From an uncultured bacterium (GTDB taxonomy: Bacteria; CSSED10-310; CAZUFC01), in assembly GCA_964619725.1 (NCBI GenBank), contig CAZUFC010000016.1, positions 33,563 to 97,562 of the forward strand: DNA of 64,000 nt, given 5' to 3'. Numbering within the stretch: the stretch's first letter is position 1; each line of letters starts with the position of its first letter. Shown piece by piece: positions 51,195-64,000 of this stretch. A program made the translations under genes and the position numbers. The notes under the pieces were generated by a model. That model made no database searches, was not told where the DNA came from, and saw nothing but the letters and a program-made list of their open reading frames with translations.

Positions 51195-51473
51195 CAATAG
51201 CCAATGGTCAACGAGCTTCAGGCGGACGTCGTTGGCCATTGACGATTGAACATGGACGATTGACTATTTTGTATACACGAATGCGTTCGAACATACCAGG
51301 CGAGTATAATTGCCAATGGCCAATGGTCAATAGTCAATAGTCAATCAGCTTCGGACGGACATCGTTGGCCATTGATGATTGAACATTGACGATTGGCTAT
51401 TCTGAATACCCGAATGCGGTCGATCTGACCAGGCGAGTATAATTGCCAATGGCCAATGGTCAATAGCCAATGA
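51195..51473. repeat. 133-bp tandem repeat (2 copies plus a partial third) made of alternating inverted heptamer tracts
   Basis: Units start at 51195, 51328 and 51461; shared ACCAGGCGAGTATAATTGCCAATGGCCAATGGTCAATAG and TCGTTGGCCATTGA. Confidence 0.9.
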
Positions 51474-60618: not shown

Positions 60619-63102
60619 TTATTTGCTGCTCTGCCGTTCTCGCTCACTCAACATATTCAATAAATCGTCAGCGACTGTTTTCTGACCTTCCTTCTTGCTT
60701 CCAGCCTCAGCAGGTTTCGTCTGTACTTTAGCGCCGTCATTTAAAATCGCCCACGCAATCATTTTAAAAACCGGTTGATGAGACTCCCCGGTGCGTTCTA
60801 TTAATTCATATCCGAAATCGCTTACTTGTTTCTTCTGCTTCATCTCATTCAGCAAAACTCTGGCTTCTTTGACTGACGCCTGCTGTTCCTTTCCCGCGCT
60901 CGATTCCTGCTTCTCCGCCGTCTCCGACGTCTGCTCGCTTTCCGTTTCTTTCATCCAGTTCGTTATCTGCTCCAACATTTCTTCACAGCATGCCTGCTCT
61001 GCCTCTTTCGCTTTTTTGGCTTGATAGACTTTTGTTTTGAAGGTTTTCTCATCAGGCGATACCCAGGCTGCAAAGCAGCGAAATCCCACCGGAACGGCAA
61101 CAGGTTCGACCACAGCCTGTTTCAGCTTATGTTTCATTACAAATTCCAGCAGTTTTCCTTTCGGGTTCTCCAATTTCAATCTTTGAATCTCCTCATCAGA
61201 CAATGAAACGACTTTTTCTTCCGCATGCCTTTCCGCAATGACCGAAAGGAGCTCCCTGGCAGCGAGTTGTTCCGCCATCCTTTCACTGTGTGCATCTTTT
61301 ACTCCGCTGGAAAGTATCTCATCGTCAAGCCTGACCTTTAACTCGACCACATGCCTGCCCTTATGCAGTGTAGCGAGTTTTTCAGGCGCCGGCATATTTC
61401 GCCTGGCGCAGAATTCAAGCAGCGTTCCCTTGGGATTCTCCTTTTTCAAATCTTCCTCAAGCGCTATTTCTTCCGGCGTAGGCTCGGCAAGAGGAGAGCG
61501 TTTCGTCAGGGGCCATAAATGGTCCTGCTTTTCTTCATGAAATTTCGCCAATCCCGTTGCGACAAGCGCATGACCCAATTCCAGCCGTTTTTTCTCCTCA
61601 ACCTTTTCTCCAAACCAGGCTTGCGACAGTATCTCAAGCGAAACCGGCTCTCCGGTTGCAGGACCAAGAAGCGCAGCCGCTTTTTCCGGGGTGATCTTCA
61701 ATCGAGCTGTTTCTTTGCCCTTTTCTTGCGGTTTCTTTTTGCGTCTCAGCGGATATTTTCGTTCTATGACCGTTCCGTCCTCAGCAATGACGATATCCTT
61801 CGTCGTCAGCGAATCAGCCATTATCTTCTTGGCTTCCGCATCCCCGTGAATAAGCACGACCGTTCTCGGATTGAAAGATTCAGTGAATCCAGCCATCTGC
61901 ATCCTGTCCGCATGCGCGGATAAACGATATGAATCGAATTTACATTTCACTTCATACGTTTCTTCACCCAGCTTTAATTCCTTTTCCTTGTTCTCCGCCA
62001 GCGCAAGCAATGCCCTTCCCGGCGATTCCTCATCCTGGTAACCCGTTATCAATATCGCATTCTTCTCATTCTTTACCAACTCCGATGCATAAAACGCAGA
62101 GGGGCCTCCGGAAAGCATTCCGCTAGAGGAGACGATTATACAGGGAGCCTTTTTCAGTATCTCTTTTCTCTCATCAGGAGATTTTACCGGGTGAATGTAG
62201 TCTGTATAAAAAGCGTTTGAGGATTTTCTTATCTTGTACCGTAAGCTTCTCGAAGCGTACTTTTCATGAGTGGAATAGACCTGATTCACGGCCCTTACCA
62301 TGCCGTCGGCATATACCGGCAATTGAGGCATCCTTTTGTTCTGCATGGCCCATTGCAATATCAGCAGAACTTCCTGTGCACGGCCGATTGCAAATGCCGG
62401 GATGAGAACAATTCCCTCTTCCGTTACAACTTCATTTACTTTCCTTATTAATTTTTCTTCCGCAGTTTTCCTGTTCGAATGCAAACGGTTGCCGTACGTC
62501 GCTTCGCTTATGATAATATCAGCGCTGACTTTCGGTCTGATCAATCCGGGAACCGTTCTCTGCGACGATACGCTGTAATCCCCGGTGAAGAGCGCTTCAC
62601 CCGCGGGAGTCGTCACATGAATCATTGATGCCCCTAAAATATGCGAAGCAGGATGATAGCCAACCACAACATCCTTTACCGTTACAGCGTCGCCATGCTG
62701 TATCGGAATGCACATCGACAACATGCTGTTTACCTGCTTTTCAGTATAAAACGGAAGTTCGCCCTCTCTCTCCAGGGCCGACTCCATTAATCGCAACGCA
62801 TCACGCTGCAGTATGGTCACCAGTTCCAAAGTCGGAGGCGTCATATAAATGGGAACACCGGGAAATGCTTCATGCAAAATCGGCAATGCACCTGTGTGAT
62901 CCGTATGTGCATGACTAACCAAAACAGCATCAATGCTCTTCCCCGTCAAAGAATCCAGATCGGGAATCGGATTATCCCCCTTGATCCTGGTTCCGCAATC
63001 AACAATTATCGCCGTCTCACCCGTTTCCAAAAGCATGCAGGATGCACCTATCTCGCTCGCTCCACCCAAAAACTCTATCTTCATGTTAGTCGATTTCGTC
63101 AT
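60619..63102 (-). CDS. Beta-CASP (CPSF3/YSH1-like) metallo-beta-lactamase ribonuclease fused to three dsRNA-binding-motif-like domains
   Basis: FLGGASEIGASC, SHAHTDHTG, SHILGA, FTGD, SEATYG, IPAFAIGRAQE, SSGML.GG.S, GYQDEESPGR, SAHAD, IHGD; dsRBM-like units near aa 555, 645 and 745. Confidence 0.88.
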   Translation of the reverse strand: MTKSTNMKIEFLGGASEIGASCMLLETGETAIIVDCGTRIKGDNPIPDLDSLTGKSIDAVLVSHAHTDHTGALPILHEAFPGVPIYMTPPTLELVTILQRDALRLMESALEREGELPFYTEKQVNSMLSMCIPIQHGDAVTVKDVVVGYHPASHILGASMIHVTTPAGEALFTGDYSVSSQRTVPGLIRPKVSADIIISEATYGNRLHSNRKTAEEKLIRKVNEVVTEEGIVLIPAFAIGRAQEVLLILQWAMQNKRMPQLPVYADGMVRAVNQVYSTHEKYASRSLRYKIRKSSNAFYTDYIHPVKSPDERKEILKKAPCIIVSSSGMLSGGPSAFYASELVKNEKNAILITGYQDEESPGRALLALAENKEKELKLGEETYEVKCKFDSYRLSAHADRMQMAGFTESFNPRTVVLIHGDAEAKKIMADSLTTKDIVIAEDGTVIERKYPLRRKKKPQEKGKETARLKITPEKAAALLGPATGEPVSLEILSQAWFGEKVEEKKRLELGHALVATGLAKFHEEKQDHLWPLTKRSPLAEPTPEEIALEEDLKKENPKGTLLEFCARRNMPAPEKLATLHKGRHVVELKVRLDDEILSSGVKDAHSERMAEQLAARELLSVIAERHAEEKVVSLSDEEIQRLKLENPKGKLLEFVMKHKLKQAVVEPVAVPVGFRCFAAWVSPDEKTFKTKVYQAKKAKEAEQACCEEMLEQITNWMKETESEQTSETAEKQESSAGKEQQASVKEARVLLNEMKQKKQVSDFGYELIERTGESHQPVFKMIAWAILNDGAKVQTKPAEAGSKKEGQKTVADDLLNMLSERERQSSK

Positions 63103-63299
63103 TCCTTGACTGTAGAGCTTAAGATTCCCTCAAAAGAACCTCTTTTAATTTCCGTTACTTCCACCGATATGCTGTCCATAAACATGTCAGCTATTTTGTC
63201 GTTCTGTCGGGCGCTGACGGCATTCGACAGAATTATTGCCGAAGTTAGAATGATCGACAACAGCGCACAGCGAAGAAATAAAACTTTTAACTCTCTCAT
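63099..63299 (-). CDS. Small signal-peptide-bearing protein translationally coupled to the beta-CASP gene
   Basis: GAAGGAG SD; hydrophobic core ending AVSA; ATGA stop/start overlap with the 63102 start. Confidence 0.55.
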   Translation of the reverse strand: MRELKVLFLRCALLSIILTSAIILSNAVSARQNDKIADMFMDSISVEVTEIKRGSFEGILSSTVKE

Positions 63300-63576
63300 A
63301 ACCGAGCTCCTTCAATCAGATGAATGTTGCTTTTTACAAGATCGGACAACCCAGTTACGGATACTGTCCTATCGAAAATCCTTTATAATTAACCTTTTCG
63401 ACTTGTCTTGATATATTTCGGTGAACAGAAAAGCAGGCAGTTCACTGAGGAGACATTTACCGCCATTTCATCGTCAAAGCCGCAAGGAAAAAATTGGAAA
63501 TCGTTTTCTTGCAGCCTACTTTTCCCTTATCTCCTCATAGTTATTCCATCAAAAAACGGGAAAGGAGTCAAATCTC

Positions 63577-63767
63577 CGGCGCTGATCAGATATCCTTGTT
63601 TCGAGGTTACAATTTTTGCACCCTTGAATAATTACGAAGCTGTGCAAATATGATCAGGACAAGACATATCTCCTCGTAATCAGGTTGGTTCGACCCCGAT
63701 ATCGACCCCGACCCCGAAACAAATAGTCAAACGTTTTGAAAAAAGTGTAACCTCAGTTTGATCAGTC
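63577..63767 (-). repeat. Right arm of the ~190-bp imperfect inverted repeat
   Basis: See left arm; also contains CGACCC hexamer runs and an internal inverted pair GAGGTTACAATTTT (63603-63616) / AAAAGTGTAACCTC (63741-63754). Confidence 0.9.
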
Positions 63768-63840
63768 CCAAATTTCCAAAGCATCATGCACTGTAAAAAA
63801 TCAGCTTCCGGTTGACGACCGCTAACATCAAACAATACCA

Positions 63841-63872
63841 AGCGGCCCCGATGAGAAGTTCAAAGGGGCCGT
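63841..63872 (-). terminator. Stem-loop downstream of the edge gene
   Basis: AGCGGCCCC...GGGGCCGT inverted repeat about 30 nt past the stop at 63901. Confidence 0.45.
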
Positions 63873-63900
63873 TTGAGTAATGTTTTTTATTCAGCGATTA

Positions 63901-64000
63901 TTATCTGCTTTTTTCCCTCCTCAGGAAACCCGTCAGCATTGAGCTCAGGACGAGCATCAGGATAAGGAACCCGCTTCTTGAGAATGCGGGAATGGGAGCC
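63901..64000 (-). CDS. 3' end of a gene with an IPTL-CTERM-like tail (truncated by the window edge, absent from the ORF track)
   Basis: Minus-strand translation APIPAFSRSGFLILMLVLSSMLTGFLRREKSR*. Confidence 0.75.
   Translation of the reverse strand, partial: APIPAFSRSGFLILMLVLSSMLTGFLRREKSR

Follow-up and report, generated by a model that had tools for sequence, protein, structure and literature searches.

In all three domains of life, the making of RNA 3' ends and the breakdown of RNA depend centrally on ribonucleases of the beta-CASP group, which differ in how they find their RNA, through KH domains in archaea and through partner complexes in eukaryotes. Enzymes of the CPSF73/aCPSF1 type cleave single-stranded RNA (ssRNA) endonucleolytically and then degrade it in the 5'->3' direction. 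aCPSF1, also described as FttA, is a conserved archaeal protein, and CPSF73 and INTS11 need partner subunits to recognise RNA and carry C-terminal domains of their own. [quoted passage not shown] The gene considered here lies in a 64,000-nucleotide stretch of contig CAZUFC010000016.1 (assembly GCA_964619725.1, from an uncultured bacterium of the CSSED10-310 lineage), and this whole stretch is called the window below. The gene encodes a CPSF73/aCPSF1-type nuclease core joined to a small winged-helix-like domain and three dsRBDs, and it belongs to a coherent, uncharacterised bacterial family with a rare architecture.

We lean, by a modest measure, towards reading the protein as a stand-alone accessory RNase whose C-terminal arm recruits it to RNA duplexes, where it would cut adjacent single-stranded RNA. 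The gene and its parts, with positions counted in the window and in amino acids (aa) of the product, are the following.

60619..63102, minus strand: the whole gene, a single open reading frame (ORF) of 827 aa plus stop with an ATG start; full-length relatives have 803-857 aa.
61783..63102, minus strand: catalytic core, aa 1-440, made of metallo-beta-lactamase (MBL), beta-CASP and RMMBL parts, of CPSF73/aCPSF1 type by Pfam, NCBIfam and PDB sequence matches.
62896..62913, minus strand: motif 2, HAHTDH, aa 64-69, metal ligands read from the translation, with H64, H66, D68 and H69 invariant.
61693..61770, minus strand: basic flexible linker with many R and K residues, aa ~445-470, of low model confidence and without a Pfam family.
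61507..61692, minus strand: small winged-helix-like domain, aa ~471-532, a predicted fold with conserved W-F-G and an R-D-D wing.
61228..61446, minus strand: dsRBD1, aa ~553-625, which keeps G-x-H and in the window copy has E607-R608 instead of K-K (dsrm 22.2 bits; model residues 104-186).
60958..61176, minus strand: dsRBD2 (a diverged copy of dsRBD1), aa ~643-715, with a last helix that reaches ~aa 734 (dsrm 21.0 bits; model residues 197-295).
60622..60870, minus strand: dsRBD3, aa ~745-827, of canonical type, with a G-x-S-H-Q-P-x-F loop and an S-K-K helix start (dsrm 15.7 bits; also matched by TIGR02191).

The core contains the full set of residues expected of a beta-CASP nuclease, namely MBL motifs 1-4 and beta-CASP motifs A-C. 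Pfam places Lactamase_B at aa 20-179 (57.3 bits), Beta-Casp at aa 242-365 (92.9 bits; cut-off 27.7) and RMMBL at aa 383-434 (40.5 bits; cut-off 21.6), and the motifs SAHAD (aa 395-399) and HG (aa 419-420) are both present in the 827-aa translation. Residues D35, H64, H66, D68, H69, H154, D175, E200, H397 and H419 are invariant in 28/28 aligned full-length relatives. At motif C, a His rather than a Val marks the RNA-acting beta-CASP members; the window protein combines this His, the invariant H419, with an RMMBL domain, the two features of the RNA-acting subgroup. An earlier note on this DNA, made from its letters alone, had claimed that the MBL/beta-CASP motifs of aa 1-440 are intact, and both the Pfam domains and the invariant residues bear this out. 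Judged by its residues, the N-terminal 440-aa part is a catalytically complete RNA-type beta-CASP nuclease.

Among the described enzymes, aCPSF1/FttA (TIGR03675; PDB 2xr1, 2ycb, 3af5, 9bct) shares the MBL, beta-CASP and RMMBL core as well as the presence of an appended RNA-recognition module. The best PDB sequence match of the core is aCPSF1 2xr1 (E 9.2e-69), followed by CPSF73/CPSF3, INTS11, FttA, Cas14 and TTHA0252. In aCPSF1, however, recognition is by two N-terminal KH domains for ssRNA, whereas the window protein starts at the MBL domain, has no KH domain and carries a C-terminal winged-helix-like domain with three dsRBDs; the aCPSF1 model of NCBIfam gives 339.5 bits over model positions 170-615, below its cut-off of 580.2. 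Unlike archaeal aCPSF1, the dsRBD-nuclease family is bacterial and rare. CPSF73 and INTS11 (PDB 2i7t, 6v4x, 7cun) have a homologous catalytic core (E 1e-50 to 1e-56), and the difference from them is that in the window protein the enzyme itself carries the recognition domains.

Cas14 of type VII CRISPR-Cas (NF045584; PDB 8yhd) has a related beta-CASP core (E 3.3e-49), but the NCBIfam model yields 270.5 bits against a cut-off of 800, aligning at model positions 1-435 of 612 and leaving positions 436-612 unmatched, and no array or cas neighbour occurs in the window. The RNase J model TIGR00649 reaches 63.7 bits against a cut-off of 400, and no NCBIfam equivalog cut-off was passed by the core. Thermus TTHA0252 is a core-only bacterial CPSF73-like enzyme of 431 aa (core match E 4.1e-42), and a family of long proteins of ~820-930 aa, described below, shares the bacterial CPSF73-like core and differs in its C-terminal ~300-476 aa.

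Bacterial RNase III (TIGR02191) shares the dsRBD fold, and dsRBD3 of the window protein aligns to and superposes on the RNase III dsRBD. The match of the RNase III model is confined to aa 739-816 and to the dsRBD part of the model (positions 145-217; 25.5 bits, cut-off 166.25), and the catalytic domain is not matched. Because there is no RNase III catalytic domain, the chemistry would come from the two-metal MBL site acting on single strands; RNase III cuts within the duplex, whereas the window protein is proposed to cut beside it. Since the defining feature of each is missing, the protein is not an aCPSF1, a Cas14, an RNase J or an RNase III, and the comparison of sequences suggests that the dsRBD-nuclease works like a targeted CPSF73/aCPSF1-type RNase. 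In its multi-dsRBD arrangement it resembles the Dicer/Drosha cofactors Loqs, TRBP, R2D2 and DGCR8.

The earlier note knew of no characterised protein with this architecture, and a full-text literature search, outside which lie subscription journals and supplements, likewise returned no paper joining beta-CASP and dsRBD in bacteria. One paper describes HEPN-RNase III-dsRBD fusions, an architecture different from beta-CASP plus dsRBD (PMC3710099).

In the AlphaFold2 model of aa 440-827, the linker that follows the core (model residues 1-30) has a mean predicted local distance difference test score (pLDDT) of 51-59, falling below 50 at residues 15-24. The next segment, aa ~471-532, was overlooked in the earlier note, whose core and three C-terminal units were both found to be present. 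It is predicted as three helices and a two-strand hairpin, with pLDDT 88-97 within the aa 440-827 model and 73.6 when folded by itself, and it gave neither a Pfam match nor a PDB sequence match. In a structural search with VIA-align its top rows are all winged helices, including the SelB SECIS-binding domain, Z-alpha domains, MarR/IclR-type regulators and a cullin, at weak scores (best Z 5.5, under the noise guide of 7-8). None of the aligned rows departs from W496, and at least 90% of them have G498, R521 and D522. The segment is therefore called winged-helix-like here, and not a proven winged helix.

DNA binding is common among winged helices, the beta-CASP group includes some nucleases of DNA, and the core gives a weak match to the ligase-associated exonuclease model of NCBIfam (59.3 bits; cut-off 325). 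From these facts one may picture a nuclease of DNA or of RNA:DNA hybrids, such as R-loops or primers, in which the winged-helix and dsRBD folds bind A-form hybrid or DNA. This we hold to be extremely improbable: an RMMBL domain is present, motif C has the His and not the DNA-type residue (by the rule given above), the closest relatives are all RNA enzymes, and no repair genes are linked.

The remainder of the arm is formed by the three dsRBDs. Scanned as a whole, the protein exceeds the Pfam gathering score for dsrm (PF00035; 44.9 bits, E 1.7e-11, cut-off 23), and the units scanned singly give 22.2 (aa 557-620), 21.0 (aa 647-712) and 15.7 bits (aa 751-817). AlphaFold2, run on aa 440-827 with a 46-row alignment, predicts three alpha-beta-beta-beta-alpha units, mostly at pLDDT 95-98 (mean of the model 90.5). 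The Foldseek matches in PDB at E <= 0.001 are dsRBD proteins in 12/12 cases, among them Loqs-PB, R2D2, TARBP2, DRB4, MLE, NF90 and DGCR8; the best E, 1.2e-7, is to multi-dsRBD proteins, and the Aquifex RNase III dsRBD comes next (28% identity, rmsd 2.9 A). VIA-align, a search independent of Foldseek and run over 48,161 chains, gave Z 9.8-10.7 and rmsd (root-mean-square deviation) 1.3-2.1 A over 67-74 residues against single dsRBDs, with rows that cover all three units. For dsRBD3 these rows include ADAR1 dsRBD3 (Z 9.9) and the Aquifex RNase III dsRBD (Z 9.8, 31% identity). A search of the ESM Atlas with aa 440-827 gave no usable match. The three C-terminal dsRNA-binding-like units that the earlier note had read from the translation are thus recovered by fold prediction and by both structural searches.

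Canonical dsRBDs contact double-stranded RNA (dsRNA) through helix 1, the G-P-x-H loop and the K-K at the start of helix 2. By alignment, only dsRBD3 has the full canonical contact pattern: G772 is kept in 24/28 relatives, H775 in 24/28, F779 in 28/28, K803 in 26/28 and K804 in 25/28. In dsRBD1, H584 of the G-x-H is found in 18/28, and a K or R stands at position 607 in 22/28 and at 608 in 25/28, the window copy having E607-R608. The beta1-beta2 loop of dsRBD2 is G-G-F, without His, and a single Lys, K699, is conserved (19/28). By their sequences, dsRBD1 and dsRBD2 go back to a duplication and have since diverged (32% identity, E 2e-7), and both open with an invariant N-P-K-G-x-L-L-E. To describe the arm as three dsRNA-binding domains, close to the wording of the earlier note, is therefore too strong: dsRBD3 is canonical in its contact residues, but dsRBD2 lacks the His loop and the window dsRBD1 has its E-R pair.

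In the reading that we favour, the basic flexible linker would tie the beta-CASP core to an RNA-recognition arm composed of the winged-helix-like domain, the tandem diverged dsRBDs and the one canonical dsRBD. The arm would most likely dock on A-form duplex, for instance that of a long hairpin, of a sense-antisense pair or of a structured precursor. Binding to the duplex would be made chiefly via dsRBD3, and dsRBD1 and dsRBD2 may either extend the contacts along a longer helix or mediate association of the protein with itself or with a partner. Docking would raise the local concentration of the nuclease near the duplex, and the nuclease would then cut flanking single strands, loops or bulges beside it and may proceed 5'->3' after the initial cut. 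We infer the dsRNA binding, the duplex-adjacent cleavage and the cellular targets of the family. The earlier note had envisaged a nuclease recruited to or activated by dsRNA; recruitment is plausible in view of the dsRBD3 contacts and the superposition on RNase III, but nothing supports activation.

Several observations weigh against this account. Every dsrm score of a single unit lies below the Pfam cut-off, so that, while the whole-protein score stands, the per-unit sequence evidence is borderline and it is structure that settles the fold. The relative geometry of the domains in the aa 440-827 model is uncertain (predicted template modelling score, pTM, 0.59), and two of the three dsRBDs are non-canonical, as just described. 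The top VIA matches of dsRBD1 (DCL4 dsRBD2 and DRB7.2, each with DRB4, Loqs dsRBD3, TARBP2 dsRBD3 and Staufen dsRBD5; Z 10.1-10.7) are dsRBDs that we take to be protein-binding, which we treat as a lead only; because of these matches, part of the arm may not bind RNA. Pairwise BLAST of dsRBD1 or dsRBD3 against the genome's own RNase III revealed no similarity, and the patchy distribution described below fits any accessory role and points to no particular targets. A docking prediction of the core (aa 1-445) with the arm (aa 466-827), made without controls, scored 0.00 against a mark of 0.32 and is evidence neither way. A recent derivation of the dsRBDs from the RNase III of the same genome was also considered and was rejected, as BLAST gave no significant alignment.

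The same properties of the arm are the basis for an explanation in which at least dsRBD1 and dsRBD2 are protein-protein modules, used for dimerisation or for docking on a partner or the ribosome, and the enzyme acts on ordinary ssRNA. We consider this unlikely, though it deserves to be kept in mind. It would account for the presumed protein-binding relatives of dsRBD1 and for the missing His loop and K-K of dsRBD2 and the window dsRBD1, respectively, and the invariant N-P-K-G-x-L-L-E start points to a surface under selection, whose function could be other than RNA binding; moreover, ribosome hibernation factors of the same fold match dsRBD3 (VIA Z 8.0-8.6). On the other hand, dsRBD3 is canonical, dsRBD1 of most relatives keeps G-x-H and K/R-K, and VIA Z differences within 1 unit are ties, with canonical dsRBDs falling in the Z range of dsRBD1.

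The fusion is not confined to the window. When aa 440-827 served as query in a word-indexed search, the same Pfam architecture was met in 48 other clusters, whose complete members are mostly of 803-857 aa. The source annotations call them no more than 'MBL fold metallo-hydrolase' or 'Cft2 family RNA processing exonuclease/dsRNA-specific ribonuclease'. In an exhaustive HMMER search of 1.84 billion representatives, 122 proteins were found at E <= 0.001 and 23 at E <= 1e-30; the short matches P0052, P0053, P0059 and P0060, read as candidates for proteins made of a winged helix and dsRBDs without the core, look like fragments or internal starts. When the 80 best loci of species-representative genomes were inspected, 35 had the C-terminal module, at least in part, and these represent at least five groups: Planctomycetota, Myxococcota, Fibrobacterota (mostly Chitinispirillaceae), Candidatus Entotheonella and Bdellovibrionota.

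The other 45 of these loci match to the core only and do not encode short proteins once their frames are extended. Frames were extended at 46 loci, namely 44 of the 45 core-only loci (L079, a partial module copy, was omitted) plus L037 and L038. Complete ORFs of 755-938 aa were obtained at 42 of the 46, with ~300-476 residues past the core that are unrelated to dsRBDs; L038, which has a dsrm domain, has 133 residues after the core. The long beta-CASP family of ~820-930 aa thus delimited is 40-47% identical to the window protein over the core and has an internal repeat in its C-terminal region, where no Pfam family recurs among 35 scanned members and the winged-helix profile detects 3/43 members. 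It is widespread (Acidobacteriota, Bacillota, Chloroflexota, Myxococcota and Vulcanimicrobiota) and, like the dsRBD-nuclease family, has no conserved neighbours. One member is encoded by the genome of the window itself.

L082:334-2844 on contig C56, minus strand: own-genome paralog of the long family, 836 aa, 44% identical to the window protein over the core.

This paralog has a different C-terminal region of ~390 aa, with an internal two-fold repeat and no Pfam family, for which the ESM Atlas returned a single 0.83 match to an unnamed cluster; the ORF upstream of it is presumably DnaX, to judge from its sequence. Contigs C68 and C122 of the same genome (L083 and L084) contain distant beta-CASP frames of 470 and 504 aa, with 33% and 24% core identity. 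Together with the window gene and the C56 paralog, the genome thus has four beta-CASP proteins.

A maximum-likelihood tree of 81 cores (IQ-TREE quick search, LG+G4), rooted on the two distant own-genome paralogs, places all dsRBD-bearing cores in one clade of 33 rows (32 labelled rows and L038), with a support of 99 in the Shimodaira-Hasegawa-like approximate likelihood-ratio test (SH-aLRT), and this clade lies among long-family lineages. Because the dsRBD-bearing cores form one clade with such support, the fusion is read from the core sequences as having arisen once, by a swap of C-terminal modules on a bacterial CPSF73-like scaffold. The sub-clades partly follow phyla, with Planctomycetota in one, Fibrobacterota in one and Myxococcota in three places. 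The window copy branches deep and is not sister to the copy of its own phylum (L001, the same gene as that of genome G002, with identical BLAST statistics). This placement suggests transfer, for which it is weak evidence because the basal forks of the core tree lack resolution.

Other RNA enzymes with dsRBDs turned up among the proteins matched by the arm (P0141, P0147 and P0117): RNB-domain proteins of the RNase II/R type, in which two or three dsrm domains are present, and the C-terminal fragment of a helicase, which has a single one. Their dsRBDs resemble those of the dsRBD-nuclease family. dsRBDs on RNA enzymes are therefore recurrent, and the surprise of the present fusion is tempered. 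The genome of the window also encodes a canonical RNase III (249.4 bits), and the dsRBD-nuclease is thus an addition to that enzyme and not its replacement.

Prevalence was assessed with a profile of the C-terminal module; the counts outside the window's phylum include the starting genome, and those for Planctomycetota and Myxococcota are lower bounds, as 9 first-look candidates were scored per genome. Within the window's phylum, 2/14 genomes have a full-length gene and there is one short dsRBD-only frame (E <= 1e-10). At E <= 1e-30, the gene was found in at least 2/201 Planctomycetota genomes, in at least 3/201 Myxococcota genomes (one of them partial) and in 13/151 Fibrobacterota genomes (one a 144-aa frame). 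In the order to which the Chitinispirillaceae locus L016 (genome G043) belongs, 13/81 genomes were positive at the same threshold. Because so few genomes carry it, even in this best-populated lineage, the gene is accessory, rare and patchy. It is thus not the widespread, already described housekeeping RNase that, according to the earlier note, would have undone its reading.

Some copies are incomplete. The Planctomycetota genome G041 has, besides a full-length copy, a second copy of the C-terminal module at C61:52447-53479 (minus strand), divided between two neighbouring frames (165 and 254 aa), a sign of a probable frameshift or of a duplicate in decay. The short frame of the window's phylum, at G005:C88:414-620 on the minus strand (L087/L093), is dsRBD3-like only, with one in-frame TGA and 44% identity to aa 748-815.

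The patchiness bears on a further explanation, that the protein is a hairpin-guided factor of 3'-end processing or termination, a bacterial counterpart of aCPSF1/FttA or of CPSF73/Integrator, with dsRBDs where those have KH domains or partner proteins; it would cut nascent RNA beside a stem-loop and afterwards chase the polymerase in the 5'->3' direction. Its core is indeed closest to aCPSF1/FttA, CPSF73 and INTS11, and aCPSF1 likewise joins this core to a module for RNA recognition, which is C-terminal here and consists of N-terminal KH domains there. A general termination factor would however be expected lineage-wide, whereas this gene is patchy, and the examined loci show no linkage to genes for RNA polymerase or transcription; we judge such a role very improbable.

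The gene has no fixed genomic partners. BLAST clustering of the ORFs of 33 loci and the window recovered only the gene itself and shadow ORFs on its opposite strand or out of its frame, the largest cluster outside the gene covering 3 loci, and the candidate of a conserved operon or partner gene was rejected, as no neighbour is shared across these loci. The 104 flanking genes of 28 loci show each Pfam family twice at most, and a given PADLOC model never matches more than one of them (library PADLOC-DB 2.0, dated 2023, outside whose coverage newer defence systems fall). The neighbours in the window are a C39-like peptidase, a sulfatase, a nitroreductase and secreted proteins, and the wider window is ordinary chromosome with MurJ, BatD, sulfatases and BNR proteins. 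PADLOC gave only 23.2 and 12.9 bits on the 827-aa protein, in the generic MBL motif region. No match was found in plasmids (72,556), phages (50,697) or IMG/VR, collections that under-represent the phyla concerned, and no CRISPR-like array was seen within the 64-kb window. Carriage on mobile elements was considered as well and is without support in the plasmid, phage and IMG/VR collections.

These results are of importance for the proposal, made in the earlier note, of a dsRNA-sensing antiviral effector. Such a single-gene antiviral or abortive-infection effector would sense phage dsRNA, from replication intermediates or convergent transcripts, with its arm and direct or unleash the nuclease on viral or host RNA. 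The gene occurs rarely and patchily over a range of at least six phyla, the window copy is not sister to the copy of its own phylum, and Cas14 of type VII CRISPR is among the relatives of the core (scores given above); single-gene defence systems outside islands also exist. Nevertheless, the defence context is missing, with ordinary neighbours, no recurrent flanking family or PADLOC model, generic-region PADLOC scores only, and no plasmid, phage or IMG/VR match or CRISPR-like array. The antiviral proposal thus finds no support here, and we regard it as distinctly unlikely. Of the analysis of homologs suggested in the earlier note, the patchy distribution was found but the defence islands were not; patchiness is compatible with an accessory or a defence gene and shows neither.

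The surroundings of the gene in the window yielded few other features. Rfam (at gathering thresholds) and ARAGORN found nothing across the window, and between 60200 and 64000 neither promoter-like sites (8 vs 4.9 +/- 2.2 in shuffles) nor terminator-like sites (3 vs 4.0 +/- 1.9) exceed shuffled sequences. Upstream of the gene, ~900 bases remain before the end of the contig, which falls at 64000 and inside the 3' end of another minus-strand frame; the upstream context is thereby incomplete. At 63300-64000, ~650 bases upstream are without an ORF of at least 60 aa on the strand of the gene, save for a 66-aa frame. This frame, at 63099-63299, has a stop that overlaps the ATG of the gene and has no Pfam match. 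Farther away, at 51195-51471, a 133-nt unit is repeated in 2.1 tandem copies with 87% identity, between a TauE-like exporter gene and a 151-aa ORF.

The stand-alone accessory RNase that we favour may be thought of in weaker or stronger terms. If the enzyme is merely tethered to structured RNA, it represents a modest addition to the accessory RNases. In the strongest version it would be a bacterial duplex-guided RNA cutter independent of RNase III, with tandem dsRBDs like those of Dicer cofactors as ruler or sensor and the CPSF73-type core as blade, serving either as a hairpin-directed 3'-end torpedo similar to FttA, CPSF73 and Integrator or as a dsRNA-triggered immune nuclease; this we think quite unlikely. 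If it is true that the distance from a duplex is measured or that dsRNA is the trigger, the protein would be a potential structure-directed RNase and would bear on the origins of eukaryote-like RNA processing in the large-genome Myxococcota, Planctomycetota and Entotheonella. The sister long family, with the same core and another C-terminal module, offers a natural module-swap comparison. A bacterial CPSF73-type enzyme with its own winged-helix-like domain and three dsRBDs would couple the recognition of duplexes to the cleavage of single strands in a new way.

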